NCBI GenBank assembly: GCA_963779755.1
Contig: CAVZZO010000003.1
Location: 800,001 to 864,000 of the forward strand
DNA from: an uncultured Gemmatimonadales bacterium
GTDB taxonomy: Bacteria; Gemmatimonadota; Gemmatimonadetes; Gemmatimonadales; GWC2-71-9
Direction of reading: 5' to 3'
DNA length: 64,000 bases
Shown: positions 4,361 to 38,117 of the stretch, in pieces
How positions within the stretch are numbered: position 1 is the first letter of the stretch
Layout of the letters: each line of letters starts with the position of its first letter
The notes under the pieces: model-generated
The model's input: the letters and a program-made list of their open reading frames with translations, nothing else
The model's database searches: none
Told to the model about the DNA's origin: nothing
Translations under genes and position numbers: made by a program

Positions 4361-4399
4361 GTTGTCATCAAAATGTCAACTATACAGCATCAATATGCT
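4361..4399. promoter_or_regulatory. Two tandem palindromes upstream of vapB (candidate autorepression operators)
   Basis: GTTGTCAT-CAAA-ATGTCAAC (4361-4380) and AGCAT-CAAT-ATGCT (4386-4399) in an AT-rich patch. Confidence 0.55.
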
Positions 4400-4463
4400 A
4401 CGATCCTCAGTCGCCGCGGCTCCATTGAAGCATCATCGCCGGTAGGGCTTGCCGGGGGGCCGG

Positions 4464-6446: not shown

Positions 6447-6564
6447 GATGATTCGCCTCCGAAACCAGGACATGGACCGATCTTCCCGCCGGAGCATTCC
6501 GGCCCCCCTCGCTAGCATACCCGCCCGGCCCGAAAACGCCAGGCTGGACGTGTCCCGACCCTAG

Positions 6565-22176: not shown

Positions 22177-22250
22177 GGAAGTCTTTCTCTCGCGTCCTGA
22201 CTTTCTACGACCCCCTCGATCGCTCTGAGTGGTCGAGGGGGTCGAGGGGG

Positions 22251-23010
22251 TCAAGACGGAGCTCGCGACGCGACTCGCGGCCCACGGCTCAGATCTGGGG
22301 CGTTGGCCGGCTCAAAAGGGCACAGGGGCCGGAGAGGACCGAGCGGACATTCGGGAAGGTCTCCAACCAAGCCGGTGCGGATCTCCCCTGATTCCCCACC
22401 CGACCGGTTGGCCCAGTCGGGACAGACGTATCCCCAGCGGCGGAGGGTAGCCTCCAGCATCCATTCCCAGCCGGGGATCTCAACCGTGTTTCGGAAGGAC
22501 TCCAGCCCACACAGGTCCACCCACCGGCGTACCGTCCTCGCATCGTGTCCGGAGCAACTGGCGAGAAAATCCACGGAAGCTCCCGGCATGAGCTCGGCTC
22601 GAAACTTCAGCCGGATCAGCGCGCCAACTCTGCTCCATTGCGTGCGTGTCAGGCAACCGAGCTCGCGTACTCGACGCACCCGGGTTCGGGAAGAAGACGA
22701 ATACCCACTCAGCTGTATCGGCTCCTCTGGCGCGAGGAAGCACTCCGCCGGGCAGCGCAATCGCGGTGAACGCCCCGGGAAGCGGAGCGATGGTCCGGAG
22801 GAAGAGATCGGTGGATTCGTCCGGCTTGCTCTTTACCACCAGACACACCGGACACCAGGGCGCGGAGAGGGCGGCGGGCAGTACCCCGGCGGCCGCGGCG
22901 AGAACGTCACCGCCCTCTACCAGAAGAATGCTGCCGTTTGGCGGGGCGGCGGTCCCGAGAGGGCCTGCCTCCCAGGACGGCGGCGTTATGCACGTCACCT
23001 GCAGGGACAT
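22251..23010 (-). pseudogene. Degenerate putative HTH regulator split over two frames, divergent from the module array
   Basis: MSLQVTCITPPSW... frame switches near 22750 to ...SVDFLASCSGHDARTVRRWV (HTH-like)...PGWEWMLEATLRRWGYV. Confidence 0.4.
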
Positions 23011-23157
23011 GCCAGACTCGAGATCAAGATACGTGAGCATGCAGCCCGGCTCCTGCCCTGTCAAGGCGTGCAGGAATCGGCCACGAATGGCCTGCGGTGG
23101 TATGGCAGCCGACTCTGAAGATCGCCAGCTTGAACCACCTCCACCAGGATCTCCTGC

Positions 23158-24014
23158 ATGGGTCGGTGTCTGCGAGGGACTGCACTGTTGCTTGCCCTGG
23201 CTCCACCGCCTGCGGGACCGCCGGGCAGCAAGCCCGGCTCGATCGCTTATCCCTCCGGGTGGACAGCCTGGCCCGCACGCTCACGGCCGTGGTCGCCGCG
23301 CAACGCGGCCAGGGGGCGGCCGTACCCGGCACGGCCGATGTCACCATCGGCGCCCTCCCGATTGCCGGCTCGCCGGCCGCGCCGATCACGATCGTGGAGT
23401 TCACCGACTACCAGTGTCCCTTTTGTGGTCGGCACGCGCGGGAGACACTGCCGGTCATCCGGCGGGACTACATCGCGCGCGGGCTGGTCCGGTATGTCGT
23501 ACGCGATCTGCCCCTTCCCATCCATGCGAATGCTCAGCCGGCAGCCAGGCTAATGCGATGCGTGGCCCGGCTTGATCCCAAGGCCTTCTGGCCCCTTCAT
23601 GATTCGCTGTTCCATCCCCGACATGAGCTTTCGGACTTGCTCCTGACCTCGTTTGGGAGGCAGACCCGTATCGCTCCGGGGCTGCTACACGAGTGTCTTG
23701 TGGATTCCACGGTGGAACAAGGCATCGCGCAGGATGTGAACGATGCGACGGTGGCCGGGCTCCGGGGTACGCCGTCCTTTGTGATCGGGTGGACCCGGGA
23801 AGACGGGCAAGTACGAGGGCGTACGATCTCGGGGGCGTATCCCATTGAGGTCTTCCGGCAGTTGCTGGATTCACTGGTCGCCGCCCAGCGGACGGGGGCC
23901 CAGACTGGCAGTCGTTCATCCACGCCCAACAACAGGGGCCTCTATGTATCGAGCAATCCGGAGTGCCGCAACGGTCTTTGCCCTGGGACTCCTCCCGATC
24001 CTGGCGGGTTGTGA
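23158..24014 (+). pseudogene. DsbA-like thioredoxin lipoprotein, module 1 (1-bp deletion in signal peptide near 23203)
   Basis: IVEFTDYQCPFC and GLRGTPSF motifs; adding one base restores MGRCLRGTALLLALAxTAC with Cys19, exactly as in paralog 31085..31942. Confidence 0.8.
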
Positions 24015-24109
24015 AGGCAGCGCCGGCGCGCCCACAGCGGAGTCCCCTCCCATTCCCACCCTTGACGGACCCGGCACCGGACGTCAGAGTCTGGTGATAG
24101 GTGGGCCGG

Positions 24110-25483
24110 GGTGCCGTCCCGATTCGTGTAGAAAATTGAAATGGCGTATGCTTCCGGGATGATCGAACCCCGATCCGCCGAAGTGCGGATCTAACCCGGA
24201 GGCATACGCCATGAGAGAAGTTACGGCCACGGAGCAGGGGTGGGAAGCACTGGTCGGGGCGGACCCGCTGACGGCGGCCCTGCGCCGCGAAGCGCGGCGC
24301 TGGATTGAGCGCATGTTGCACGAGGAATTGGCGGCCGTCTTGGGCAGCGGCCGGCATGAGCGGACCGCCGCCCGGCAGGGATATCGGCACGGCACCCGGC
24401 GGCGGCGGGTGACGACCAGCCTGGGCCCCGTGGATCTCGCCATCCCGCGAGGGCGGGTGCAGGCGGGCGCCGAGCTGCGGGAATGGCAGAGCGGGCTGCT
24501 GCCGCGGTACGCGCGCCGAGCCCGGGCGGTGGATGCGGCGCTGGTCGGCTTCTACTGCGGGGGCGGCAATCAGCGGCGGCTCGCCCGGGCGCTCCGCTCG
24601 CTGCTGGCCGACGGTCCCGCCTCGCGGAGCACGGTCTCGCGCGTCGTGCGGGGGCTGCGGCAGGGCTACGAGGCGTGGCGCGAGCGCCCCCTGGGGGAGT
24701 TGGGGGTGCAGTATCTCTATCTGGATGCGATCCACCTGCATGTGCGGGTGCTCAAGCGGGTCGAGCCGCTCCCGGTCCAGGTGGCGGTCGGGGTGCGGCC
24801 CGACGGGCAGAAGGTGCTGCTGGATCTCCGGCTCTACGTCGCGGAGAGCGCCGCGGCCTGGGGCGACTTCGTGCGCGGGCTGGTGGAGCGCGGCCTGGTC
24901 GCGCCGGCGCTGGTGATCACCGACGGCAGCAAGGGTCTGCGCCGGGCGCTGAGCGAGATCTGGCCGCAGGCTGCGGTGCAGCGCTGCACGGTGCATAAGC
25001 TGCGCAACCTGGCGGCCCACTGCCCGCAGCGGCTCTATCCGGCCGTCAAGCGCGACTACCACGCCATCGTGTATGCCGCCGATGCGGAGGCGGCGCGGCG
25101 GGCCTGGGGGCGGTTTACCCGCCGCTGGGGCCGGGAGCTGCCGGGGGTGGTGGCGAGCCTGGAGGAGGCGGGCGAGGAGCTGCTCACGTTCTATCGCCTG
25201 CCGAAGGCGCAGTGGAAGAGCCTCCGCACGACGAATATCGTCGAGCGCGTGCTGGAGGAGGTGCGACGGCGAGTCAAAACGCAGGGATCGTTGCCCAGCA
25301 CCGACGCCGTCCTGGTGCTCGGCTACGGTCTGATCGCGACGGGGCAACTGCCCTTGCGGCGGATTGCCGGCTGGCGAACCTTGCCCCGTGTCAGTAACCG
25401 TCAAGCGGCTGCATGAGCGCCTGACACGCTTGGAGGCCCGGAGACAGCGCCCATTGATTTTCTACACAACTCGGGACACGACC
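24110..25483 (+). mobile_element. IS256-family insertion sequence, 1374 bp
   Basis: 27-bp imperfect IRs GGTGCCGTCCCGATTCGTGTAGAAAAT / ATTTTCTACACAACTCGGGACACGACC; 8-bp TSD TGGGCCGG at 24102-09 and 25484-91. Confidence 0.95.
24211..25416 (+). CDS. IS256-family (mutator-type) transposase
   Basis: GYRHG.R.R...TSLGPV.L.IPR.R, YLYLDA, ITDG.KGL, QRCTVHKLRN, LRTTNIVER..EE.RRR.K. Confidence 0.95.
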   Translation: MREVTATEQGWEALVGADPLTAALRREARRWIERMLHEELAAVLGSGRHERTAARQGYRHGTRRRRVTTSLGPVDLAIPRGRVQAGAELREWQSGLLPRYARRARAVDAALVGFYCGGGNQRRLARALRSLLADGPASRSTVSRVVRGLRQGYEAWRERPLGELGVQYLYLDAIHLHVRVLKRVEPLPVQVAVGVRPDGQKVLLDLRLYVAESAAAWGDFVRGLVERGLVAPALVITDGSKGLRRALSEIWPQAAVQRCTVHKLRNLAAHCPQRLYPAVKRDYHAIVYAADAEAARRAWGRFTRRWGRELPGVVASLEEAGEELLTFYRLPKAQWKSLRTTNIVERVLEEVRRRVKTQGSLPSTDAVLVLGYGLIATGQLPLRRIAGWRTLPRVSNRQAAA

Positions 25484-25897
25484 TGGGCCGGATCTCCCGG
25501 CCCAGTGCGCCGAGTGGCACTGCGAGAGCGGCATCTGTGGGAACGATACGGCCATCTATGGTGCGTGCTGCACCCAGGCGGTGGACGAAGAACATCCCTA
25601 TCCGGAGCCTCGCCCCTCCTGCCAGAGCACGCAGTCGTACTGCTATCAGTATCCGCAACGGTGTGTGGAATCCCCGGAGTGCAATTCCATGCTTGCCCCT
25701 CAGTATTGTTATCATGCAAACGCCCCAGACGCCTGCATGGACGGAGCGTTCCCGGACAGCCTCCGTACAATGCCGTGCCGGTACTTCACCTGGTACGATA
25801 TCTCCCAATGCACGTGCGGCATTTACTAACAAGCAACAAGGGCGCTGAAAGACACTGCGACGGGCCTGAGGCCATTCTCTCGAAGTTCCGCACCAGA

Positions 25898-27979
25898 ATG
25901 GGTATCCTGACGCTGGCATTCTTGGCGGCTCCTGCGACCGGCCTGTGGTGCCAGACAGCCCCCACCCATTCAGGCGAAGCTCGGTGCGCCAGAGCGACAG
26001 GGATCCGGACGAATGCAGCGAAGGAAGCCGACTCCCTTCGAAGTGAGCTTGCCTGCTGGGAGCGCGTCGTCTTGGAGCGGAATCGGGACAGTGCCCAGGC
26101 TTGGCTCGGGATCGGTCTTGCACGGCTTGGCCTTGCTCGGCTGAAAGAGATCGCCAAGGAGGGGCCGCTCCAGCCGCTGGGGTCCAGCTACGCGCGGGGA
26201 GCCGCGGAGGCTTTCATGCGCACATTGGAACTGGATTCCACCCGGTCCGAGGCGGCCATCAACCTTCCCAAGGCTCTCGACCTGCTGCCGGCCTGGGTCC
26301 CCTACACGCAGGCTCGCGACGCCCTCCGGCGGACGACCGGGACAGAAGCAGGCCAGGTTCCTACGGTCCTGCTTGCGCGAGCTCAATACGAGCGCGAAAC
26401 CAGGGAACGCGATTCCACCCGGATACTTCTCAAGCGGTTTCTTGCCTCGGGCAGCGACTCGTCCATAGCCGAACTGGAGTTGGCGAGGGAATACTATGCT
26501 GTCGGAGATACCGCCGCTGGTGCGGGTGCCTATGCGCGCGGCGCAATCGCGGCCGGCCGCACGGCACCCGGTCACCAGGCTTACCGCGAACAGCTTGCAC
26601 TGGTGGCCTCCCCGGAAGAACTCGTTCAATTCGATTCAGTGCCGGCCGATTCCCTTGGCCCTTGGATAGCTCGGTTCTGGTCACGCAGGGATGACGAAGC
26701 GGGCCGGCCTGCAGGCGATCGCCTTGCCGAGCACTTCCGCCGGTACGAATACTCGATGAAGAATTTCCGGGCCATCGTGCGCCGCCCACCGGGGGCACCG
26801 CTGGTCAGCGTGATGACGGCAGACGTACAGACCGGGGCTATTGATACTCTGACAATGGATCAGGCACTGGACCAACTGTACGGCGATTCCGCGGGAGGAA
26901 GCACGCTTCTCCGACAGCACCAGCTTGCCGGAGCCGGAGAAATGGACCCGCGGGGGCCGGTATACATCAGGCTCGGGCCGCCAGACGATCGTGCTGGTTC
27001 ATTCTGGGCCTACTACCGGAGCACAGGCAACCTGTATCTGGCTGTGGACCCTCAGGGGCGCCCCGGGTCACTCTGTGATCTTGACGTATGGTTCTGCTTC
27101 CCCGGGACCGACCGGCTTCGCCAGTTGTGGCATAAGACATTGGCGCATATGGCAACGAAAGCAGCGCAGGTTGACGAGTACCTGCCGCGCTACCGGCACT
27201 CCATCCACCCGACGGTCCAGGTGTATGCGGTCCAGAGCCCGGCGGGAGACAGTGCAGGCTGCCTGCTCGCCGTCTTTGCGGTCCCGCAGGATGACCTCGT
27301 CAAACCGGATAGCAGTGACGGTTTTGCCTATCCCATTCACCTGTATCTGGTGGCGAGCGCCCCTGACGGCAGCCGGCGCGCCGACCTGGACACGCTGCGC
27401 ACATTCGTCACCCCAGAGCCCCTCCAGGGCGACGAGTACCTCACCGGCCTGCTGGAGCTGCCGGTGCCGCCCGGACTGGTCAATGTCCGGCTGACCATCA
27501 CCCAGCCCGATTCCGTTCACGCCCGGCCCGCGGATGCCCGGCCGGAAGTCACCGGCGACCGGGGCGCTGTGGTCGGGCTCGACAGCGTAAGAGTCCCTGA
27601 TGCGGAGCGTTTCTCCCTGAGCGACCCGATTCTGGGCCGGAGCGGCGCCGGCCTGGTCTGGCAGTCGCCCGAGGGGCCCGTCCCCCTCAACCCGCTCGGC
27701 GCCTTCCCTTCAGGCTCCCGGGCCAGCCTCTACTACCAGGCGGCGGGGCTGCACCCGGGAGCCACCTACCGGCAGCAGGTCGCCATCACACCGGCCAAGG
27801 GGAAGGGACCCGGCATGACGCTGAGCTTCTCCGAACCCGCCACGGGAAGCCGACAGGCGTTCCTCCGGGCGCTCATTCTGAAGGACCTGCGGCCAGGTAA
27901 GTACACGCTTGCAGTGACGCTGGAGGCGCCGGACGGGACGCGTGTCGAACGAACCACGCCGCTCAATGTGACGCGGTAG
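25898..27979 (+). CDS. Exported GWxTD-like domain protein 1
   Basis: Hydrophobic leader; helical N-region; LVASPEEL..F...WIARFWSRRD...LAEHFRRYEY...F...DPRGPVYIRLGPPDD; beta-sandwich C-terminus (LSDPILG, PLNP, PGKYTLAVTL); start uncertain. Confidence 0.8.
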   Translation: MGILTLAFLAAPATGLWCQTAPTHSGEARCARATGIRTNAAKEADSLRSELACWERVVLERNRDSAQAWLGIGLARLGLARLKEIAKEGPLQPLGSSYARGAAEAFMRTLELDSTRSEAAINLPKALDLLPAWVPYTQARDALRRTTGTEAGQVPTVLLARAQYERETRERDSTRILLKRFLASGSDSSIAELELAREYYAVGDTAAGAGAYARGAIAAGRTAPGHQAYREQLALVASPEELVQFDSVPADSLGPWIARFWSRRDDEAGRPAGDRLAEHFRRYEYSMKNFRAIVRRPPGAPLVSVMTADVQTGAIDTLTMDQALDQLYGDSAGGSTLLRQHQLAGAGEMDPRGPVYIRLGPPDDRAGSFWAYYRSTGNLYLAVDPQGRPGSLCDLDVWFCFPGTDRLRQLWHKTLAHMATKAAQVDEYLPRYRHSIHPTVQVYAVQSPAGDSAGCLLAVFAVPQDDLVKPDSSDGFAYPIHLYLVASAPDGSRRADLDTLRTFVTPEPLQGDEYLTGLLELPVPPGLVNVRLTITQPDSVHARPADARPEVTGDRGAVVGLDSVRVPDAERFSLSDPILGRSGAGLVWQSPEGPVPLNPLGAFPSGSRASLYYQAAGLHPGATYRQQVAITPAKGKGPGMTLSFSEPATGSRQAFLRALILKDLRPGKYTLAVTLEAPDGTRVERTTPLNVTR

Positions 27980-28121
27980 GGCGGGACTCGGGGCACATTC
28001 GCCCTTCCAGAAACAGCCGAAGCCCCGCTCGCTGGACTGTGAGCGGGGCTTCAACATCAAGGCGCGCACGAACCGGCCAGGATTGGCTCCGAATGGCATG
28101 GCAGGGCTCTGTGAAGTTCCG
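27977..28121. repeat. Conserved inter-module spacer, copy A (copy B 30911-31053; partial homolog 23061-23157)
   Basis: Near-identical ~145 bp directly after GWxTD-like genes 1 and 2. Confidence 0.9.
28019..28052. terminator. 12-bp stem-loop after GWxTD-like gene 1 (no U-tract)
   Basis: GAAGCCCCGCTC-gctggactgt-GAGCGGGGCTTC; equivalent at 30952-30984. Confidence 0.55.
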
Positions 28122-28135
28122 GAGATTGTGCCGTC

Positions 28136-28322
28136 CGGCCTCCGGGACACCCCGGCCTTTGTGATCGGGCCCACTCGGGAGGACGGCCGGTACTGGGGCG
28201 TACGATCTCCGGCGCCTATCCCATGGAGGTCTTCCGCCAGTTGCTGGATTCACTGGTCGCCGCCCGGCGGACGGGGGACCAGGCTGGCAGCCGTTCATCC
28301 ACGCCCAACGACAGAGGCATCT
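28136..28322 (+). pseudogene. 3' remnant of DsbA-like gene, module 2 (large 5' deletion)
   Basis: GLRDTPAFVIGPTREDG matches GLRGTPSFVIGWTREDG; DNA colinear with ~23757-23943. Confidence 0.85.
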
Positions 28323-28769
28323 ATGCATCGAATAATCCGGAGTGCCGCGACAACGTTTGCCCTGGGGCTCATCCCCCTGCTGGCGGGTTGTGAGGGAGGC
28401 GGAGGCACGCCGACTGCGGAGTCGCCTCCCATTCCCACTCTTGACGGACGTGGCACCGGGCTTCAGAGTTTTGTGATAGGTGGGCCGGACCTGCCGGCCG
28501 ATTGTGCCGAGTGGCATTGCGAGAGCGGCATCTGTGGCAACGATACGGCGATCTATGGTGCGTGCTGCACCCAGGCGGTGGACGAAGAGCATCCCTATCC
28601 GGAGCCTCGCCCCTCCTGCCAGAGCACGCAGTCGTACTGTTACCAGTATCCCCAGCGCTGTGTGGAATCCCCGGAGTGCAACGCTATGCTGGCGCCTCCG
28701 CATTGTTATCACGCACAGCCCCCAGAGGGCTACACATGGTACGATTTTCCGGAGTGCCTGTGCGGATAG
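28323..28769 (+). CDS. Cys-rich lipoprotein 2 (148 aa, 12 Cys after lipobox)
   Basis: MHRIIRSAATTFALGLIPLLAGC lipobox; GAGG RBS; paralogous to three other copies. Confidence 0.88.
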   Translation: MHRIIRSAATTFALGLIPLLAGCEGGGGTPTAESPPIPTLDGRGTGLQSFVIGGPDLPADCAEWHCESGICGNDTAIYGACCTQAVDEEHPYPEPRPSCQSTQSYCYQYPQRCVESPECNAMLAPPHCYHAQPPEGYTWYDFPECLCG

Positions 28770-28795
28770 GCGGCGAGAAGGGTAGCGCATAGAGC

Positions 28796-30913
28796 ATGTG
28801 GAATAGTCTGCCCTCCACGCGAGCACTGCTCTTGGCTAGCATTGGCGCTGCTGTCATTGCGACCTTTGCGGCAGCGCCAGCCCACAGTCAAGCTCGGCCT
28901 GTTCAGGCAGCATCTCCTGCGGAGGACGCTCTTGGATCCACAGACCGTCGCACAGCGGATTCGCTTCGAGCCATGCTTGACGGCTGGAGCAGAGTGGTCA
29001 GAGAGAAGAATCCTGAGAGCGCCGAGGCGTGGCTGGCGATCGGGCTCGCACGACTAGGCTTGGCAAGACTCGGCGCTTATGCCAAGGAAGGTCCCCTCCA
29101 GCCGATTGGCTCCACTTACGCCCTTGGGGCGGCGGAGGCGTTTATGCGGGTGTTAGCCCTGGACTCGACCGAGTCCAGGGCCGCCGTCAAACTGCCCGCC
29201 GCACTCAGTCTGGTCCGCTCCTGGGTTCCTTACACCCAGGCCCGTGATGCGCTCCGTCGGACGGCGGGAACGGAATCGGATCACATCCCTTCGGTGCTGC
29301 TTGCCCGGGCGGGATACGAGCGGGAGACTGGGGAGCGTGATTCGACCATCGCTCTCCTCCTGCGGTACCTGAAGAACGGCGGAGACTCGGCCGTGGGAGA
29401 GCTTGAGCTCGCCCGGGAGTACTACGCCAAGGGTGATACCGCCGATGGGGCCGTCGCCTATGCCGGTGGAGCCCGCGTCGCGGGGCGCACCCCGGAAGGC
29501 CGGGAAGCTTACCGGTCGCAGATGCGCCTGGTGGCCTCGCCAGGGGAACTGACTCGCTTTGACTCTCTGCCGGGCGACTCCCTGGGACCCTGGATCGAGC
29601 AGTTCTGGTCCCGCCGGGATGCCGAAACGGGACGAGCGGACGGCGAACGCCTGGCGGAACATTTCCGCCGGTACGAGTACGCGATGACCAACTTCCGGGC
29701 CATCGTGCGGCGGCCACCCGGTGCACCGCTAGTGGATGTCATGACTGCGGATGTGAACACCGGGGCGTTGGATTCCATCACGGAAGCGGATGCGCTCAGC
29801 TTGATGTTCGGGGATTCGGCCGGCGGGAACACGTTACTCCCTCAGCATCAGATTCGCGGGGCCGGCGAACTGGACCCACGAGGCTCCATCTACATTCGCC
29901 ATGGTCCGCCAGACGACCGCGCAGGAAGGTGGTGGGCCTATCACCGAGCCGGCGGCAACCTGTATCTCCTGGTAGTACCCCTGAATGCCATGCTGCCCGG
30001 CACCCCCTGCGACCTCGACATCTGGTTCTGCATCCCGCCAACACCTCGCCTGGTTCAGTTGCAGAAGCAAGCGCTGGATCGAATGGCCGAGACGGCCCTG
30101 CGAAGCGACGAATACTGGCCGTCCTACCGTCACACCATCCACCCGACGGTCCAGGTGTATGCGATGCAGGGGACCGGTAAAGACCGTGGGGGTCGCCTCC
30201 TCGTGGTCTTTGCCGTCCCCCAGGATGATCTGGCGAACCCGGATACCAGTAACGGGTTTGCCTATTCCATCCACCTGTATCTGGTCGCCAGCACTCCTGA
30301 CGGCAGCCGGCGCGCCGACCTGGACACGCTGCGGACCTTCGTCACCCCACGGCCCCTCCAGGGCGACGAATATCTCACCGGGCTGCTCGAACTACCGGTG
30401 CCCCCCGGTTTGATCAACGTCCGCCTGACGATCGCCCAGCCGGATTCCGTCCATGCGCGCCCCGCCGACGCCCGGCCCGAGGTGACTGGAGACCGCGGCG
30501 CCCTGGTCGGTCGGGACAGCGTACGGGTCCCGGCGCCGGAACAGTTCTCCCTGAGCGACCCGATTCTGGGTCGGAGCGGGTCCGGGCTGGTCTGGCATTC
30601 CCCCGAGGGGCCCGTCCCCCTCAACCCGCTCGGCGCCTTTCCCACCGGCGCCCGGGCCAGCCTCTACTACGAGGCGGCCGGGCTCCTTCCGGGAGCCACC
30701 TACCGGCAGCAGGTGGCCATTACCCCGGCACACGGCAAGGGACGCGGTATGACCCTGAGCTTCACCGAACCGGCCACCGCTCCGCGCCAGACGTTTCTCC
30801 GGGCGCTCATCCTCAAGGACCTGCGGCCGGGCAGGTACACGCTGACGGTGACGCTGGAAGCGCCGGACGGGGCCCGCATCGAACGGACAACGCCGCTCAA
30901 CGTGTCGCGATAG
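28796..30913 (+). CDS. Exported GWxTD-like domain protein 2
   Basis: Signal peptide AHS-Q; WIEQFWSRRD, LAEHFRRYEYA, ELDPRGSIYIRHGPPDD. Confidence 0.85.
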   Translation: MWNSLPSTRALLLASIGAAVIATFAAAPAHSQARPVQAASPAEDALGSTDRRTADSLRAMLDGWSRVVREKNPESAEAWLAIGLARLGLARLGAYAKEGPLQPIGSTYALGAAEAFMRVLALDSTESRAAVKLPAALSLVRSWVPYTQARDALRRTAGTESDHIPSVLLARAGYERETGERDSTIALLLRYLKNGGDSAVGELELAREYYAKGDTADGAVAYAGGARVAGRTPEGREAYRSQMRLVASPGELTRFDSLPGDSLGPWIEQFWSRRDAETGRADGERLAEHFRRYEYAMTNFRAIVRRPPGAPLVDVMTADVNTGALDSITEADALSLMFGDSAGGNTLLPQHQIRGAGELDPRGSIYIRHGPPDDRAGRWWAYHRAGGNLYLLVVPLNAMLPGTPCDLDIWFCIPPTPRLVQLQKQALDRMAETALRSDEYWPSYRHTIHPTVQVYAMQGTGKDRGGRLLVVFAVPQDDLANPDTSNGFAYSIHLYLVASTPDGSRRADLDTLRTFVTPRPLQGDEYLTGLLELPVPPGLINVRLTIAQPDSVHARPADARPEVTGDRGALVGRDSVRVPAPEQFSLSDPILGRSGSGLVWHSPEGPVPLNPLGAFPTGARASLYYEAAGLLPGATYRQQVAITPAHGKGRGMTLSFTEPATAPRQTFLRALILKDLRPGRYTLTVTLEAPDGARIERTTPLNVSR

Positions 30914-31053
30914 GGCGGGGCTCGGGCACATTCGCCCTTCCAGAAACAGCCGAAGCCCGCTCGCTGGACCGTGAGCGGGGCTTCACCATCAAGGCGCGCA
31001 CGAACCGGCCACGATTGGCTCCGAATGGCATGGCGGCCCTCTGTGAAGTTCCG
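30911..31053. repeat. Conserved inter-module spacer, copy B
   Basis: Matches 27977-28121. Confidence 0.9.
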
Positions 31054-31084
31054 CAGGTTGAGCTGTCACCCATCGGATGCGTGT

Positions 31085-31942
31085 ATGGCCCGTGGTCTCC
31101 AAAGCACCTCGCTGCTGCTGGCCCTGGCACTTGCCGCCTGCGGAACCGGGAGGCAGGAGGCCCGCCTCGATCGCCTGGCGCTCCGGGTGGACAGCCTGGC
31201 CCGCACCCTCACGGCCGTGGTCGCCGCGCAGCGCGGCCCCGGGCCTGCCGTACCGGAAACGGCCGACGTTACCATCGGCACCCTCCCGGTTGCCGGCTCG
31301 CCGGCCGCGCCGATCACGATCGTGGAGTTCACCGACTACCAGTGTCCCTTTTGTGGGCGGCACGCACGGGAGATACTGCCGGTGATCCGGCGGGACTATA
31401 TCGCGCGCGGGCTGGTCCGCTATGTGGTGCGCGATCTTCCGCTGCCCATCCATGCCAATGCCCGGCCGGCAGCGAGGCTGATGCGATGCGTGGGCCGCCT
31501 CGACTCCGCCTCCTTCTGGCCGCTCCATGACTCCCTATTCCATGCCCGACGTGAGCTTTCGGAATTGACCCTGACCTCATTGGGGAGGCAGACCCATGTC
31601 GCTCCGGTGCTGCTGCACGGGTGTCTGGCAGACCCAGCGACGGAACAGGGCATCGCGCAGGATGTGAAGGATGCGACCGCGGCGGGGCTCCGGGGCACGC
31701 CGGCGTTTGTGATCGGCCTGAGCCGGGACGACGGAATGGTGCGTGGCCGCACAATCGCAGGCGCATATCCAATGGAGGTCTTCCGGCAGGTGCTGGATTC
31801 ACTGGTAGCTGCAGAGGGTCAGCCGAACCGCAGTGGCAAGCGTTCATCAACGCTCAACGAGCGAGGCGAAAATGCATCGAATAATCTGGAATGCCGCAAC
31901 GGTCTTTGCCTTGGGCCTTCTTCCCCTGGTGGCGGGTTGTGA
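31085..31942 (+). CDS. DsbA-like thioredoxin lipoprotein, module 3 (intact)
   Basis: LALAAC lipobox, short coiled segment, IVEFTDYQCPFC active site, DLPLPIH, GLRGTPAF cis-Pro loop. Confidence 0.9.
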   Translation: MARGLQSTSLLLALALAACGTGRQEARLDRLALRVDSLARTLTAVVAAQRGPGPAVPETADVTIGTLPVAGSPAAPITIVEFTDYQCPFCGRHAREILPVIRRDYIARGLVRYVVRDLPLPIHANARPAARLMRCVGRLDSASFWPLHDSLFHARRELSELTLTSLGRQTHVAPVLLHGCLADPATEQGIAQDVKDATAAGLRGTPAFVIGLSRDDGMVRGRTIAGAYPMEVFRQVLDSLVAAEGQPNRSGKRSSTLNERGENASNNLECRNGLCLGPSSPGGGL

Positions 31943-32306
31943 GGGAGGTGCGGGCGCAATGGCGACGGAATCGGAGGAACCTGCAGTACCCCAGTTCGCG
32001 AAGGCAGAAGGAACCTGCGCAGTCTGGAGCTGTTCCTCCGGGGACTGCGCGAAGGACCCGGCCTTGTATGGAGCATGCTGCATTGAAGTGGCAGAACCGG
32101 GCCAGACAGGAGCACCCAAGCCGTCCTGTGGAGGGGGAGGCGGAGGGGGGGGTGGAGGGGAGCCTAACCCGACACTGGCATATTGCTGTAACCCAGCAAA
32201 CTACTGGGATCCCTACTGTTATATCCCCTTCGGCTGCGGCTTCGAGCCCAACGGCCCACCACCAGAGCAAACAGGCTGCATCACGCCCATCTGTATCGAG
32301 TACTGA
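31872..32306 (+). CDS. Cys-rich lipoprotein 3 (144 aa, 6 Cys + Gly10 linker + 6 Cys)
   Basis: MHRIIWNAATVFALGLLPLVAGC lipobox; CAVWSCSSGDCAKDPALYGACC...PKPSC shares spacing with the other copies. Confidence 0.88.
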   Translation: MHRIIWNAATVFALGLLPLVAGCEGGAGAMATESEEPAVPQFAKAEGTCAVWSCSSGDCAKDPALYGACCIEVAEPGQTGAPKPSCGGGGGGGGGGEPNPTLAYCCNPANYWDPYCYIPFGCGFEPNGPPPEQTGCITPICIEY

Positions 32307-32432
32307 TGGCAGGGCGCCAAGAACCGGCATCACTCAACAAGAACGCCGGTTCACCTTTCCGGGTGGTGGCGGCTCCCCCGCCACGGTAGGACAGCTCTAG
32401 CTCGGAACTCCAGCGAGGCCTAGGTTAGAGAT

Positions 32433-34832
32433 ATGCTGTTTCGCTCTGTGGTCCTTTGCATAGTACTGCCGCTGGCCTGGAGATCTGTCGCCACGGCTCA
32501 AGGCCAGGCTCATCTGACCGGAGACGTGCTCGAGATGCTCCGCGCCTATGGCAAGCAGACGCCTGAGCAGGTGACCACTCTCGCAGATTCTCTCGCCTTG
32601 AAGGAGCGCAATACTCTCACGAGGGGCGTGCTTCTTTTTCGCTGTGCGCAGTTGACCGGGCGGATAGCTGAGTATGAGCGTGCCCTTACGGTCCTACACC
32701 ACGCCGTTTCCGGGGACTCAGGCAACGCCCAGACGTGGTTTGCCGTGGCGCTCGTACGGCAGGCAATGGGTGACTCGGGCTTTCTGGCACGCCCAGGGCC
32801 ATTGCAGCCCGTTGGGGCCAGCTGGCACGATGGAGCGGCGTACGCCTACCTGAAGGCACTGGAAGAGCAGCCTGACTTGGAGGCCGCGGCCGATTCGTTA
32901 GCCGCTTTGCGGGATCGGGTGAGGTTACACCTTGACAGCAAAGATATCGTGCGCGGGCTGATATCGGCGGCGGCTCTTGAGGCCGCGAACCCGTCGCCGG
33001 GCCTGCTCCTGTCGATAGCCAGGGTCGAGGCCAGACTTGGCCAACTCGCGGAGGCGCAGGAAACCTACCGGCGTTTCCTCCGGGCTGGAGGTGACACAAT
33101 CCCCTTCACCCCGAACATCAGAGATGCCGACGACAGTAAGCGCCTCGCGATCTTCAGGGCCGATACAACGACTCATCCTCTTCCCGAGGTCCTCTACAGG
33201 CGTCTTCGCCTGGAAACCGATCTCAGGAACGAGGATTCAGCGCAGGCTGTCCTGAAGCGATACCTGGCGATGACCGCCGATACTGGCGTGGGGCTGTTCT
33301 TCCGCAGCCGCCTGGCCTGCCTTCTAGGAGACAGTTCCAGCATCGTTCCTTACTACTTCGCTGGTGCCGCACATATACGCAGCGAATGGGCACGCAGTCT
33401 CTATCGCGAGGACATCAGCTGGATCGCCGACCCCGCAGAGCTTTCGGCCTTTGACGGGACTCCCGCGGACGGCCTCTCGTCCTGGCTCCAGAGGTTCTGG
33501 AATCGGCGAGACGTTGCTGATGCCCAATCCCCAGGCAGCCGCTTGCGAGAGCATTGCCGAAGATACTTTTACTCGATGGAGCACTACCGGCGCTCCCCCA
33601 GGTCACGCACCCCAGCATGGTGGACTGTTCAGGGTAGAGCACTAGGCGAGGATACTAGCTCGGACGCTCCCATCGATGATCCGGCTCTCGCTGACCACTT
33701 GCCGAAGACGCTTCAATCAGCCGGCCCCCTGGTTGATGACCGTGGACTCGTGTATATGCGCCACGGTCAGCCGGATCAGATCCAGATTGAAGTTGTGGAC
33801 CACCTGACCGCAACCGGCATCGGGGGGGCCGTCGTCTGGCGCTATTTCCGCCCGACTGGGGATCTTATTCTGCAATTTGCGGATGTGCCATTCGATGGCA
33901 GCGCTGAGGCGACAGCTCTTTCACCCCTGATCGTCGCGCCCCATTCCCTTTGCGCCATGACCGGGGGCCTCGCCTGCAAGCTCACCTTGCCACGAGGCTC
34001 TCGCATTACAGCAAGCGACCTGAGCAGGGTTCGTCGGAAACTGTTGCAGAGTATCACCACTGCTCTCACGTCAGACGACCTCCGGCCGCACTTCGAGAAG
34101 AATGCTGCACCAGTCTTGGAGATCTATGGCGTTGGAGGAGACAGTTCAGGCGGCAGACTTCTTGCCGTCTTTGCAATGCCCGCGAAGGCGATTGTCCCCT
34201 CCAAGGTACCAGATGGCTATCTCTATCCGCTGAGGATCCGCCTTACCGGAGCCTCGCCCGACGGAAGCAACCTGACCAGCATCGATACGACAAGGTTCTA
34301 CTTCGTCTCGGCACCGTTGAAAGAGGACCAATACCTCTCCGGCTATCTCGAACTATCGGTATCGGCGGGGAGGTACAACACCTCATTGACCTTGTCTGAT
34401 TCGCTGGGGAGAGTCGGGAGGGCGGTCACCTATGACGGCGTATCCGTTCCTAATCTGACAACCAAAGAGATCGTCATGAGTGATCTGATCCTGGGCCTGG
34501 CCCCGCCACCGCTCTTCTGGTCTTACGAAAAGCAGCGCATCCCCCTGAACCCGCTGAATGCCTGGCCTGTTCACGGGGTGTTGGAACTCTTCTACGAGGT
34601 GGGAGGGCTAGTAGTCGGGCAGGGTTACACTACGGCAATCGAGATCCGGAAGGAAGGGCGCCCTCGTATCAGGGTCGAGTTCACCGAAGAGGCGGCAGCA
34701 GACCGGCAAGTCTTCCGCAGGACCATCAAGCTGGGGGACCTCTCGAAAGGCGATTACATGCTCGTAGTGACACTGAAGGATGAGAGACACCGTGAGGTGT
34801 CTAGCCGGGAACAACAGGTACACGTTCGGTAG
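32433..34832 (+). CDS. Exported TPR + GWxTD-like domain protein 3 (divergent paralog)
   Basis: Signal peptide ATA-Q; PGPLQPVGASW, WIADPAEL, WLQRFWNRRD, LREHCRRY, DDRGLVYMRHGQPD, MSDLILG, PLNPLNA. Confidence 0.85.
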   Translation: MLFRSVVLCIVLPLAWRSVATAQGQAHLTGDVLEMLRAYGKQTPEQVTTLADSLALKERNTLTRGVLLFRCAQLTGRIAEYERALTVLHHAVSGDSGNAQTWFAVALVRQAMGDSGFLARPGPLQPVGASWHDGAAYAYLKALEEQPDLEAAADSLAALRDRVRLHLDSKDIVRGLISAAALEAANPSPGLLLSIARVEARLGQLAEAQETYRRFLRAGGDTIPFTPNIRDADDSKRLAIFRADTTTHPLPEVLYRRLRLETDLRNEDSAQAVLKRYLAMTADTGVGLFFRSRLACLLGDSSSIVPYYFAGAAHIRSEWARSLYREDISWIADPAELSAFDGTPADGLSSWLQRFWNRRDVADAQSPGSRLREHCRRYFYSMEHYRRSPRSRTPAWWTVQGRALGEDTSSDAPIDDPALADHLPKTLQSAGPLVDDRGLVYMRHGQPDQIQIEVVDHLTATGIGGAVVWRYFRPTGDLILQFADVPFDGSAEATALSPLIVAPHSLCAMTGGLACKLTLPRGSRITASDLSRVRRKLLQSITTALTSDDLRPHFEKNAAPVLEIYGVGGDSSGGRLLAVFAMPAKAIVPSKVPDGYLYPLRIRLTGASPDGSNLTSIDTTRFYFVSAPLKEDQYLSGYLELSVSAGRYNTSLTLSDSLGRVGRAVTYDGVSVPNLTTKEIVMSDLILGLAPPPLFWSYEKQRIPLNPLNAWPVHGVLELFYEVGGLVVGQGYTTAIEIRKEGRPRIRVEFTEEAAADRQVFRRTIKLGDLSKGDYMLVVTLKDERHREVSSREQQVHVR

Positions 34833-35002
34833 GACCGACGTACTTCAGCGATCCCGGCTGTTCTCGACAAGCGGCGCGTGTCGGAGAATCGGGGCCATGT
34901 GCGGTCGCAGTCGCGGCAGAGTGGCACGCCGCGCTTGATATGATTACGCAGGATGCCTCTTGTTCTACTACAGATAAGCGCCAGCAGGGAAGGAGGCGCA
35001 AG

Positions 35003-35070
35003 ATGAGCGGGAGTTGTCCGCTCAAGCAAATGCTGGCCTGCTTTTCGCTCAGGTTCCTTCTCTTGCCTGC
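35003..35070 (+). pseudogene. 5' stub of an additional GWxTD-like gene
   Basis: AGGAGG RBS then MSGSCPLKQMLACFSLRFLLLPA, colinear at DNA level with 35411-35478 (LSRGYTLKRLLVRLSLGFLLLVG). Confidence 0.65.
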
Positions 35071-35367
35071 TGGCATTGCGAGAGCGGCATCTGTGGCAAC
35101 GATACGGCGATCTATGGTGCGTGCTGCACCCAGGCGGTGGACGAGGAGCATCCGTACCCCCAGCCGCGCCCATCCTGCGGCAGCACGCAACCCTACTGCG
35201 ATCAGTATCCTCCCCGCTGTACCGCCGGGCCAGAGTGCCGGAATTTATTGGTCCCCTCCTACTGTTACCATGCGAACCCTCTTGAAGCTTGCCTCGAGAA
35301 GGGGGAAGGGAACTACAACTACTGCCGCTTCAGAGTCTGGTATGATTACCCGGAATGCTTCTGCTAA
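35071..35367 (+). pseudogene. Cys-rich lipoprotein 4, 5'-truncated (no signal peptide)
   Basis: WHCESGICGNDTAIYGACCTQAVDEEHPYPQPRPSC...VWYDYPECFC; homology to copy 2 begins abruptly at 35071. Confidence 0.85.
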
Positions 35368-35386
35368 ACCAGGCCTAAGCACCAGC

Positions 35387-37532
35387 ATGAGCAGGGCAGG
35401 ACAACAGCAGCTGAGCCGGGGCTATACGCTCAAGCGACTGCTGGTCCGCCTTTCCCTCGGGTTCCTGCTCTTGGTTGGTAGCTGGGGAGGGCAGCTATCG
35501 GGGCAGGCCATCCCATCCCCGGACGGCTTGGGACAAACCCAATCAACACAGGAGAAAGCCAGGCTCCGCAGAGCAGCTGATTCGCTTCGCCAGGCCTTGG
35601 CTAGTTCCGCGCGGGTGTTGGAGCACGACCCGGACAATGCTGAGGCCTGGCTTCTTTTAGGTGTTCGCCGCCTGGCACTTGCGCGCCTCAGGGGCCCACG
35701 CGATACCCGGCCCTCTCCAGCCGGTCGGATCAAGCTATGCCAGAGGGGCTGCCGAAGCGTTCTTGCACACGCTGGAACTGGATTCGACCCAAAGTGAAGC
35801 GGCGCTCAACCTCCCGCTAGCGCTCGACTTGCTTCCTGCCTGGGTACCGTATGCCCGGGCACGGGATGCGCTTCGTCGGACCGCGGGAACGGAATCGGAT
35901 CACATCCCTTCGGTGCTGCTTGCCCGGGCGGGATACGAGCGGGAGACTGGGGCGCGTGATTCGACCATCGCTCTCCTCCTGCGGTACCTGAAGAACGGCG
36001 GAGACTCGGCAGTGGGAGAGCTGGAGCTCGCCCGGGAGTACTACGCCAGGGCCGATAGCGCGGAAGGCGCTGCGGCATATACACGTGGGGCTCATTTAGC
36101 GGGACGAACCCCGGAAGGCCGGGAGGCGTACCGAGCGCAACTGAGTCTGGTCGCCTCACCGCCTGAACTGGCTCGATTCGACTCTCTTCCGAGCGACTCC
36201 CTTGGCCCCTGGATCGAGCGGTTCTGGTCCCGCCGGGATGCTGAAGCGGGGCGTCCGGAGGGCAGTCGCCTGGCGGAGCACTACCGCCGTTACGAATACG
36301 CGATGAAGAACTTCCGGGCTGTTGTGCGCCGGCCACCCGGCGCACCGACGGTCGATGTCATGACCGCCGATGTAAACACCGGGGCATTGGATTCCATTAC
36401 CGAATCGGATGCACTGAGCCAGATGTTTGGGGACTCCGCTGGCGGGAATACGCTACTGTCGCAGCACCAGCTTCGCGGGGCAAGTGAACTTGACCCCCGA
36501 GGGCCGATCTATATCCGGCATGGCCCCCCGGATGATCGCGCCGGCGCTTGGTGGGCGTACTACCGCGGAGGGGGCAACTTCTATGTTCACGTGGTCCCCC
36601 CGAATGCCATGCTACCAGGCACCCGCTGCGATCTGGACCCCTGGTTCTGCTTTCCACCGACACCGCGACTGATCCAGTTGCAGAATGAGGCGCTGGATCG
36701 AATGGCCGTAAAGGCCCTGCGGACCGACGAATACCGGCCCTCCTACCGCCGCGCCATCCACCCAACGGTCCAGGTGTATGCGGTCCAGGGCCCCCCAGGA
36801 GACGGTGGAGGCCGCCTTCTTGCCGTCTTTGCCGTTCCGCAGGATGGCCTCGCCAAGCCTGATACCGTTAACGGCTTTGCCTATCCCATTCACCTGTATC
36901 TGGTGGCGAGCGCACCCGACGGGAGCCGGCGGGCCGACCTGGACACCCTGCGGACCTTCGTGACACGACAGCCCCTCCAGGGCGACGAGTACCTCACCGG
37001 GGTGCTGGAGTTGCCTGTGCGGCCCGGGCTGGTCAACGTCCGCCTGACCATCGCCCAGCCGGATTCCATCCATGCCCGGCCCGCCGACGCCCGGCCCGAG
37101 GTGACTGGAGACCGCGGCGCGCTAGTGGGGCGGGACAGCGTGCGCATCCCCGATCCCGGACGTTTTTCCCTGAGCGACCCGATCCTGGGCCGGAGCGGCG
37201 CCGGGCTGGTCTGGCATTCCCCCGAGGGGCCCGTCCCCCTCAACCCGCTGGGCGCCTTTCCCACCGGCGCCCGGGCCAGCCTCTACTACGAGGCGGCCGG
37301 GCTCCTTCCGGGAGCCACCTACCGCCAGCAGGTGGCCATTACCCCGGCCAGGGGCAAGGGACCCGGCATGACGCTGAGCTTCTCCGAACCCGCCACGGGA
37401 AGCCGACAGGCGTTCCTCCGGGCGCTCATTCTGAAGGACCTGCGGCCGGGCAGCTACACGCTGACGGTGACGCTGGAGGCGCCGGACGGGGCCCGCATCG
37501 CACGGACTACGCCGCTCAACGTGACGCACTGA
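35387..37532 (+). pseudogene. Exported GWxTD-like domain protein 4, +1 frameshift near 35690
   Basis: Signal-bearing frame (...NAEAWLLLGVRRLALARL) switches to GAHAIPGPLQPVGSSYARG; rest colinear with paralog 2; could be a sequence error. Confidence 0.8.
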
Positions 37533-37642: not shown

Positions 37643-37981
37643 TCAGCTGGTGATGCTCTCCAGGGCCCGCCGCGCCTCGCGGGTAGCCCGGTTGAATTTC
37701 TTCTTGGCCTGACGCTGCCGCCGGCGGAACTGGTGACGGGCCGAATCGGTCCACTCAGTCACCTGCTCGCCGGCTTCATCGCGCAGATGGCGCGCCCCTT
37801 CGGCCAGCCTGCGGCGGGTCCGGTCGCCGCTGTCCGGGGCGAACAGCAGGGCCACCACCGCCCCCACCGCCGCGCCCGCCAGCAGCCCGAAGATCAGGTT
37901 CCGGGTGCCGTGGCTTTCTTCTTCCTCAATGTCCAGCTCGTCCTGCTCGTCGTCAGTGCGGTCTTCATGGTCGCGACCCAT
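37643..37981 (-). CDS. YtxH-domain protein
   Basis: FGLLAGAAVGAVVALLFAPDSGDRTRRRL; AAAGGAGG RBS. Confidence 0.88.
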   Translation of the reverse strand: MGRDHEDRTDDEQDELDIEEEESHGTRNLIFGLLAGAAVGAVVALLFAPDSGDRTRRRLAEGARHLRDEAGEQVTEWTDSARHQFRRRQRQAKKKFNRATREARRALESITS

Positions 37982-38117
37982 AGGCCCTCCTTTGGTCTCG
38001 TATGTGGAAGCTAGGCGATCGCCCCCGGGGTGAAAAGCGCCCCGCCGGGCCGCCTCGTAGCGTTCCTGGCGATCCTGGATAACTTTATCTTCATATCTCT
38101 CAATCCTGACCGGGCCT

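Follow-up and report, generated by a model that had tools for sequence, protein, structure and literature searches.

We have analysed a window of 64,000 nucleotides, by which we mean the whole stretch of DNA at G000:C3:800001-864000, from the 4.23-Mb, four-contig genome of a soil Gemmatimonadales bacterium (G000). It contains a tandem array of a three-gene module encoding a DsbA-like oxidoreductase (DsbA), a small Cys-rich lipoprotein (Cys) and a large exported protein with a tetratricopeptide repeat (TPR) region and a GWxTD-like domain (GW). The same gene order recurs four times on the + strand between 23.1 and 37.5 kb, and the repeat coordinates given in a preliminary description of the sequence were confirmed by listing of open reading frames (ORFs), repeat finding and whole-genome tblastn. 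The best-supported reading, which we advance tentatively, is that the three genes form a functional envelope module in which the lipoprotein is folded by the DsbA-like protein and acts with the GW protein. This reading is favoured because gene order is conserved across deep divergence, the spacings are short, the dsbA and Cys genes overlap by 71 nt, the Cys counts are even and the genes show the mark of purifying selection.

The module and its three products

Loci with a member of the lipoprotein family were found outside G000 on a 2.3-kb metagenome contig (L010) and in the genomes G421 (L009, the same locus as L034), G184 (L020), G137 (L021), G249 (L022), G396 (L023), G492 (L032), G556 (L033) and G551 (L035). 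In eight of these nine loci (L009/L034, L010, L020, L021, L022, L023, L032 and L033) the next gene downstream on the same strand is GWxTD-like, and in six (L010, L020, L021, L022, L023 and L033, by tblastn) the gene directly upstream is DsbA-like, with Pfam confirming DsbA in four of the outside modules. The triplet is thus conserved beyond this genome; a lack of such conservation was named in the preliminary description as a refutation. L032 has only a C-terminal DsbA-like fragment, recognised by eye, and no DsbA was seen in L009 or L035. The proteins of the outside modules are 25-50% identical to those of the window. Within the window the Cys and GW genes are 27-127 nt apart (27 and 127 nt), and in modules 3 and 1 dsbA runs at its 3' end for 71 nt into the Cys gene, which is read in another frame (31872-31942 and 23944-24014); no such overlap is present in L010 or L020. 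Several outside modules are damaged: frameshifts affect the Cys genes of L009 and L023 and the DsbA gene of L022, the GW gene of L032 is spread over several frames and that of L023 is broken. In L033 a truncated Cys gene runs in frame into a GW gene with its own signal peptide, giving an 809-codon frame (4397-6823, minus strand) that joins the Cys head (signal, lipobox and core up to GACC) to a complete GW protein. We considered this frame as a domain fusion and rejected the idea, as the GW part retains, inside the frame, a signal peptide of its own; the frame probably arose by deletion.

The ratio of non-synonymous to synonymous substitution (dN/dS) between paralogues, calculated by the Nei-Gojobori method, was 0.14-0.30 for pairs of Cys genes (0.14 for the 3' part of Cys1 against Cys2), 0.18-0.20 among GW1, GW2 and GW4 and 0.30 for DsbA1/DsbA3. 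Judged by these ratios, the Cys-rich ORFs are real genes that were under purifying selection; the absence of such selection was another refutation named in the preliminary description. Their products gave no match in Pfam, NCBIfam or PADLOC. A word-indexed search of 5.8 billion clusters returned two relatives each for Cys2 and Cys3, and a profile of eight sequences run against 1.84 billion representatives collected 66 proteins at E≤1e-3 (42 at E≤1e-10 and four at E≤1e-30), which with one exception are 86-188 residues long. The family alignment comprises 68 sequences, a weak match of 808 residues (P0067) having been left out. Pfam searches with these 68 members produced no convincing hit, only scattered matches at chance level (best E 0.0069, in one member). 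With no Pfam or NCBIfam model and no source name among its 66 representative clusters, this is an undescribed family of Cys-rich lipoproteins.

Members share a fixed order of features, in which a lipobox is followed by a linker (about 20-25 residues) where the Pro of an (I/M/V)P-x-F motif is nearly invariant, a core of the form C-x2-W-x-C-x4-C-x2-D-x-A-x-Y-G-A-C-C, the motif P-x-P-S-C and a variable Cys-rich tail, frequently with FPEC at its end. Three residues (C61, G79 and C82) do not vary over the 68 rows of the alignment, and C23, P38, W64, C66, C71, D74, C81, P97, C99 and C145 are conserved in at least 90% of rows. By pattern match a lipobox is present in 62 of the 68 members, 50 of which have an acidic residue (Asp or Glu) among the four that follow the lipid-modified Cys. 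The number of further Cys residues is even in 56 of these 62 (12 in 27 members, 10 in 14 and 14 in nine), as expected if all of them are disulfide-bonded. The mature lipoprotein has about 120 residues. Two types occur in the window, type A (CAEWHCESGICGNDTAIYGACC; Cys1, Cys2 and Cys4) and type B (CAVWSCSSGDCAKDPALYGACC; Cys3), and both are also present in proteins of other organisms. Cys4 carries the family signature except for its lipobox part, and the lipoboxes of Cys1, Cys2 and Cys3 read LAGC or VAGC. The variable part of Cys3 (32050-32080) includes a run of ten glycines, with shorter Gly runs at the same place in P0004, P0005 and L009; to judge from these sequences, the tract may be length-variable across relatives. 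A similarity of the core motif to hevein-like domains was dropped, being without Pfam support. The ESM Atlas returned weak look-alikes of Cys2, with values of 0.84 to unnamed Myxococcota clusters and 0.75 to Antistasin- or Kazal-bearing clusters, which we regard as leads only.

The DsbA-like proteins belong clearly to the thioredoxin superfamily families that their name implies. DsbA3 matches Thioredoxin_4 (PF13462) at 7.6e-22 (78.7 bits, cutoff 23.2) and DSBA (PF01323) at 6.9e-11 (42.7 bits, cutoff 25.6), and DsbA1, which shares 79% amino-acid identity with DsbA3, matches the same two models at 5.9e-21 (75.8 bits) and 1.7e-9 (38.2 bits). The translations contain the active site FTDYQCPFCGRH and a cis-Pro-type loop (LRGTPAFVIG or LRGTPSFVIG), the cis state being assumed from the family. 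The equivalog model NF041057 (Rcas_1661 family thioredoxin-like (seleno)lipoprotein) gave 89.1 and 83.9 bits, below its cutoff of 190. Three further DsbA-like loci, of 22-34% identity, are present in G000. The preliminary description had assigned export signals to all three products and lipoboxes to two; this stands for DsbA3, whose signal MARGLQSTSLLLALALAAC includes a lipobox, for the lipoboxes of Cys1-3 and for the N-termini of the GW proteins, which are Sec-like when read by eye, but fails for DsbA1, where the signal is out of frame, and for Cys4, which has no signal.

All four GW proteins of the window score narrowly above the TIGR04514 (GWxTD) cutoff of 28 bits, with 30.8 for GW3, 31.4 for GW1, 33.0 for GW2 and 34.5 for the 3' frame of GW4, and the match is limited to positions 3-76 of the 105 in the model. 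The name-giving G-W-x-T-D motif is replaced by GELDPRG in GW2, GEMDPRG in GW1 and LVDDRG in GW3, at what we take to be its position in the model, so that the expected GWxTD(RG) site reads (L/F/V)D(P/D)RG; the clade consensus is DFDDRGxIYIRHGEP. Relatives bear the source name 'GWxTD domain-containing protein', and an N-terminal TPR region is typical of the look-alike clusters. GW1 is 72-77% identical to GW2 and GW4 and GW4 82% to GW2 (72-82% overall), and the closest relative of GW3, at 50% identity, is found in a Gemmatimonadales metagenome-assembled genome (MAG). An AlphaFold model of GW2, built from a 32-row alignment (pLDDT 83.5, pTM 0.79), shows a signal helix and a TPR superhelix (about 36-290) running into the helical first half of the GWxTD-like domain, which is split by a disordered insert of about 55 residues (304-356, pLDDT<50) and continues as a small alpha/beta part; two beta-sandwiches (about 443-580 and 581-705) follow at the C-terminus.

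Structure searches with the GW2 model matched TPR proteins with Z of about 10-11, possibly reflecting just the common arrangement of repeat proteins, and gave generic sugar-binding and immunoglobulin-like matches for the sandwiches, the best being a Wzt carbohydrate-binding domain (Z 11.7, root-mean-square deviation 2.2 Å over 108 residues). No catalytic fold was recognised in searches with the whole model, by which the middle GWxTD part (about 290-440) was barely covered, and a sequence search of the PDB with GW2 returned nothing (best E 0.13). A transglutaminase identity was considered and rejected: the Foldseek E value was about 2e-7 with TM scores of 0.13-0.15, and TG3 (VIA row) gave Z 9.6 at 13.9 Å, matches that in the model are most likely to the tandem beta-sandwich part and not to a catalytic core. 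The modelled shape would suit a protein that binds or serves as a scaffold. In an alignment of 32 GW proteins thirty columns are invariant, and a polar cluster of invariant residues in the GWxTD-like part (E288, H289, R291, R292, D360, R362, Y366 and R368) points, as far as conservation can indicate, to a conserved ligand site or active site that would be independent of the lipoprotein. The GW proteins are not Cys-rich (2-6 Cys), and a conserved Cys pair (C405/C412 of GW2) does not track the presence of a Cys gene. Prediction of a complex between GW2 (41-705) and mature Cys2 (24-148) gave a score of 0.00 and a mark of 0.32, values that speak neither for nor against an interaction.

Array, mosaic structure and island

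The repeated character of the locus is visible in 300-nt blocks that are 61-89% identical at spacings of 2.9-7.9 kb, far beyond chance. A complete triplet is present twice, in modules 1 and 3, and is intact in module 3 only (31085-34832). There DsbA3 (31085..31942, + as are all genes of the array) has 285 codons, a LAAC lipobox and the CPFC motif, and its last 71 nt overlap the start of Cys3 (31872..32306), an intact gene for 144 residues with 12 Cys and the second type of core (CAVWSCSSGDC...); it is followed by the intact GW3 (32433..34832; 799 residues), which is 34-38% identical to GW1, GW2 and GW4. Module 2 comprises a DsbA2 remnant of about the last 60 codons (28136..28322), the intact Cys2 (28323..28769; 148 residues, 12 Cys beyond the lipid-modified one) and the intact GW2 (28796..30913; 705 residues), the protein used for the structure model. 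The deletion junction of DsbA2 is at 28135|28136: by blastn, 27980-28135 matches 30914-31067 at 91.7%, and 28135-28322 matches 23755-23943 at 85.7%.

In module 1, DsbA1 (23158..24014, with the domain frame at 23097-24014) has a 1-nt deletion in the signal-peptide region relative to DsbA3, which puts the ATG at 23158 into another frame than the thioredoxin domain. An insertion sequence (IS) of the IS256 family interrupts Cys1. The 5' part of Cys1 (23944..24109), encoding the signal peptide, lipobox and linker and 80% identical to residues 1-55 of Cys2, is ended by the 1.38-kb element (24109..25484, +; transposase at 24211-25416), and its 3' part (25485..25829), encoding the Cys core and the variable C-terminal half, is in register with Cys2 (DLPAQCAEWHCESG...); with the element removed, the Cys1 reading frame runs on exactly as in Cys2. 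The element is flanked on both sides by a GGGCCGG duplication, scores 286.4 bits against NF033543 (cutoff 150) and had its ends defined against three other copies. Its six genome copies are 98.5-100% identical, and the insertion into Cys1 is therefore recent. GW1 (25898..27979) is an open frame for a 693-residue exported protein with TPR, GWxTD-like and two beta-sandwich domains. Module 4 has no DsbA gene. After a spacer (34833..35070, no strand assigned) that is unique in the genome by blastn, it consists of Cys4 (35071..35367), truncated at its 5' end and lacking signal peptide and lipobox, and GW4 (35387..37532), which has a +1 frameshift near 35680 and is read in frames 35387-35797 and 35661-37532. 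The single-base frameshifts in DsbA1 and GW4 could be assembly or sequencing errors. One soil-metagenome run yielded short contigs at least 99% identical to parts of the array, free of indels where they covered it, coverage of the two frameshift sites not being established; one metagenome contig departs from the window sequence at 25483. The array is decaying now, with module 3 alone complete.

The synonymous distances (dS) between copies are 0.4-1.4, and the duplications are therefore old; dS is also uneven along the modules, with 1.7-1.8 for the old cassettes. Once the IS is removed, module 3 is 75-96% identical to module 1 from about 31100 to about 31950, that is, over dsbA and the first ~80 nt of the Cys gene, and 30-50% identical beyond. 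Correspondingly, dS is 0.44 for DsbA1/DsbA3, 1.66 for GW1/GW3 and 1.81 for Cys2/Cys3, and the low value for the head against the high values for the cassette argues that a recent head of dsbA plus signal peptide was joined to an old cassette. A second break lies within the Cys genes. Cys4 starts exactly at an 85-nt block that encodes WHCESGICGNDTAIYGACCTQAVDEEH and is identical at 83 of 85 positions in Cys2 and Cys4 (28512..28596, +, and 35071-35155), whereas the next 94 nt match at 60 of 94. The proportion of synonymous differences (pS) between the two genes is 0.12 in the core and 0.88 in the downstream tail, a contrast that is not explicable by protein constraint and therefore speaks for gene conversion or recombination at the block.

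The array is an insertion of about 15.9 kb, of low GC content at third codon positions (GC3), between genes that are adjacent in relatives. In G000 the insertion separates a TPR gene (ending at 22176) from a GAF gene (starting at 38118). The order pyrimidine-nucleoside phosphorylase, TPR gene, GAF gene and ligA is found in three of five relatives, with a TPR-GAF gap of about 0.4-0.5 kb; in a fourth the TPR gene abuts ligA, and the fifth, from another family, is arranged differently. The distance from the TPR gene to ligA is 0.1-1.4 kb in four of the five, with the GAF gene in between in three, and no DsbA or GW match was found in the corresponding TPR-ligA stretch of the five relatives checked. 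The block is more AT-rich than its flanks, as the preliminary description had remarked, with a GC content of 0.58-0.67 against 0.68-0.72. GC3 is 0.62-0.75 for the array genes, 0.85-0.91 for flanking genes and 0.89 for the IS transposase, and other GW paralogues of G000 have host-like values of 0.79-0.87. An accessory, horizontally acquired envelope island is the best explanation we can offer for these features, and we hold it with reserve.

The left junction of the island (22177..23157, no strand assigned) contains no recognisable gene, only three ORFs without Pfam match. Directly 3' of the conserved TPR gene, at about 22208-22259, lies a hairpin built from repeat units (GACCCCCTCGA / TCGAGGGGGTC), a 48-nt stretch of which recurs about six or seven times elsewhere in the genome, in both orientations (blastn). 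Rfam yielded no meaningful match for the junction. A search for a conserved upstream regulator or RNA yielded only noise by tblastx and nothing in Rfam, and a promoter and terminator scan stayed at chance level. Between the array end and the GAF gene is a small YtxH-like gene (37643-38050, minus strand; Pfam 7e-16), which has no match at the corresponding place in the five relatives and so may belong to the island.

A proposed functional module and the readings set against it

Under the preferred reading of a functional envelope module, we infer that the DsbA-type lipoprotein, a CPFC-bearing paralogue of the general DsbA of the lineage, would oxidise the Cys-rich lipoprotein, introducing five to eight disulfides, and that the folded lipoprotein would then act in the envelope by binding the exported TPR/GWxTD protein encoded directly behind it, most likely as a partner or tether that is anchored in the membrane and docks on the TPR part. 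The array would have arisen by tandem duplication followed by recombination, in which a recent dsbA-plus-signal-peptide head was placed on an old divergent cassette (module 3), and by gene conversion at the 85-nt core block. Module 2, with its intact lipoprotein and GW genes, would have to rely on DsbA3.

A number of observations weigh against this reading. The module is rare: with a 68-row profile, five of 401 genomes in a sample of the phylum were matched including G000 itself, all in its own family (four of 165 others) and none of the 235 genomes of other families, and within the taxonomic family eight of 400 other genomes were matched, counts that are lower bounds because ten first-look candidates were scored per genome. 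Locus L035, with a distant family member, has neither partner gene. The module is often broken, here as well as in L009, L022, L023, L032 and L033, and any function must accordingly be dispensable. The structure predicted for Cys2 from an 8-row alignment was unusable (pLDDT 43).

DsbA and GW proteins also occur outside the module. The preliminary description had called the oxidase 'private', which we cannot uphold: homologues of DsbA3 at E≤1e-20 are present in 356 of 401 genomes of the taxonomic family, a tally that takes in seven genomes flagged as unpublished, on which no other result depends. Of its four best outside matches, those in G137 and G556 are Cys-linked, whereas the 10-12 kb surrounding those in G150 and G424 contain neither a Cys-family ORF (hmmsearch, E≤1) nor a GW gene (tblastn, E≤1e-3). 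The module DsbA is therefore an extra paralogue of a general DsbA lipoprotein and not a separate kind. G000 likewise encodes about ten further GW paralogues at four other loci without an adjoining Cys or DsbA gene, Cys-rich ORFs beside them being only out-of-frame artefacts, and so GW proteins in general do not depend on the lipoprotein. Nor is the pairing of lipoprotein and GW protein as 'cognate' as had been described, for the Cys tail groups modules 1 and 2 (pS 0.41, against 0.88 to module 4) and the GW proteins group modules 2 and 4 (dS 0.63 against 1.09); fine-scale co-inheritance of Cys and GW thus fails, on these distances, among modules 1, 2 and 4.

A GW paralogue of G000 (G000:C3:581451-583450; L024 at about 5452-7450, minus strand) is 62-70% identical to GW1, GW2 and GW4 and is read in two frames, apparently through a frameshift. 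It lies directly upstream of dnaX, as does the Cys-GW pair of L009 in a related MAG, and from this shared neighbour the module may have had its older chromosomal location here. Further GWxTD-like paralogues, with host-like GC3, stand in tandem arrays of three to four at about 583.6-588 kb and 628-634 kb of G000:C3 (L024 and L025), adjoining an M14 carboxypeptidase gene, Ser/Thr kinase genes and an ORF of 1087 residues without Pfam match.

Free-standing GW arrays bear on the possibility that DsbA and the lipoprotein are a self-contained enzyme/substrate unit that has repeatedly landed, or been kept, in front of recombination-prone GW arrays without any joint work with the GW protein. Such Cys-free tandem arrays exist in G000 (C3, 581-588 kb and 628-634 kb) and beside the modules of L020 and L021, and the point of recombination that separates the GW gene from the variable part of Cys agrees with this idea. 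A quick maximum-likelihood tree of 35 GW proteins places the Cys-linked ones in several clades, mixed with Cys-free paralogues, and needs five label changes, a number equalled in 130 of 500 shuffles; by the same token, the linkage is not one recent block that was copied around. We nevertheless think a self-contained unit unlikely, since the GW gene is found directly downstream, on the same strand and at short spacing in eight of nine outside loci across deep divergence, and since the Cys-GW pair persists in L009 and L032 where DsbA is missing or fragmentary. The tighter linkage is therefore that of Cys to GW, not of DsbA to Cys.

The state of the locus raises the further question of whether the array is a relic, a dying remnant without present function in which module 3 and Cys2-GW2 have merely not yet been hit. 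The four modules carry five disruptions, namely frameshifts in DsbA1 and GW4, the IS in Cys1, the deletion in DsbA2 and the truncation of Cys4; these, with similar breaks in five of eight outside modules and a low GC3 that has not been ameliorated, are what such a relic would show. In module 3, however, all three frames are open (285, 144 and 799 codons) and the signal sequences are intact, the divergence of the paralogues was built up under purifying selection, the IS insertion is recent and the two single-base frameshifts may owe their existence to assembly, all of which make a relic improbable. Rarity, island location, mosaicism and frequent breakage do show that the module is dispensable, and these features fit a role under changing selection, such as competition, recognition or phage.

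Competition in its most explicit form would make the Cys-rich lipoprotein a disulfide-stabilised bacteriocin or a toxin delivered by contact or outer-membrane exchange, the GW protein its cognate immunity protein or receptor, and Cys4-GW4 an orphan cassette like those behind contact-dependent inhibition (CDI) and Rhs loci. A conserved head and variable tail of the lipoprotein, one dsbA head common to two old cassette types and a 5'-truncated Cys4 that begins at a block 98% identical to the intact gene all fit this picture, as do the island location, patchy distribution and frequent decay, and the sublancin locus of SPbeta, with a thiol-disulfide oxidoreductase inside a bacteriocin operon, is a precedent. 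We regard it as doubtful all the same. No window protein has a Pfam family of toxin type (E≤0.01), none of the 68 family members gave a convincing one and PADLOC found nothing; the putative immunity protein, with 693-799 residues and several domains, comes from a large family that includes housekeeping-like, high-GC3 paralogues, and is thus unlike known immunity proteins; the lipobox argues for membrane retention and not release; modules 1, 2 and 4 did not inherit the variable part of Cys together with the GW gene; and selection is purifying, not diversifying. Least probable, in our estimate, is a cassette-switching system for a disulfide-knotted, possibly surface-exposed lipoprotein, in which the dsbA-plus-signal head would be the expression site, the 85-nt block the recombination handle, and silent 5'-truncated cassettes of tail and matching GW gene (such as Cys4-GW4) would replace the expressed tail and so vary a pair of recognition proteins of the envelope that serves competition, kin discrimination or evasion of phages or predators, with the lipoprotein as the first known GWxTD ligand.

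Relation to known systems

The preliminary description knew of no system with this architecture, and we found none in Pfam, NCBIfam, PADLOC or the literature searched, which held no mention of GWxTD, TIGR04514 or PF20094 and, in the searches made, nothing relevant on a Cys-rich lipoprotein with DsbA in Gemmatimonadota. The interest of a functional module lies in its third gene: Gemmatimonadota, Acidobacteriota and relatives of Bacteroidota have GWxTD proteins in abundance, and the linked lipoprotein is a first candidate partner for these proteins which, together with its disulfide enzyme, offers a concrete, expressible pair for binding tests. The locus also shows how swapped cassettes behind a common head can make up an envelope gene set. 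Should the cassette reading be true, programmed surface variation would gain a new example beyond the classical models; if the locus is instead an accessory island in decay, it still documents well a course of duplication, mosaic recombination and erosion.

Four comparisons place the module among known arrangements. Arrays of orphan cassettes are familiar from polymorphic toxin loci (cdiA-CT/cdiI of CDI, and Rhs tips), and silent cassettes from pilS; they have in common with the array a conserved head, a variable tail and a linked downstream gene, as well as a 5'-truncated copy with a near-identical homology block in a mosaic locus within an island. The array differs from them in having no toxin domain and no small immunity gene, in that the protein encoded downstream is large and comes from a general envelope family, and in that no recombinant forms were observed here. 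Chlamydial OmcA and OmcB resemble it as a small Cys-rich lipoprotein gene beside the gene for a large exported envelope protein, both dependent on periplasmic disulfide chemistry; unlike that pair, the GW protein is not Cys-rich, and there is no sequence similarity, the lineage and gene family being different. The GW proteins themselves resemble other GWxTD proteins in that all four of the window are above the TIGR04514 cutoff and have a TPR N-terminus, and differ from them in the partial profile match, the insert within the domain and the replaced name-giving motif. Among 16 proteins encoded in the neighbourhood of GW genes and scanned by us, none belonged to a TonB-receptor family.

Operons with their own DsbA- or Bdb-type oxidoreductase include the sublancin (sunA) locus of the Bacillus subtilis prophage SPbeta with BdbA and BdbB, DsbL/DsbI with AssT, and SrgA with PefA. 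As in these, an extra oxidoreductase paralogue stands here beside a small exported protein with Cys residues to pair, while other DsbA-like genes lie elsewhere in the genome. In contrast to them, the substrate would be a lipoprotein of a new family with 10-16 Cys, the module is without a DsbB/BdbC-type membrane partner, exporter or modification enzyme, and a TPR/GWxTD protein of 700-800 residues is its constant third gene. The nearest known kind is therefore the operon-encoded, substrate-dedicated DsbA/Bdb paralogue, and what is new in this array is the substrate family, the constant GWxTD partner and the cassette-like mosaic.

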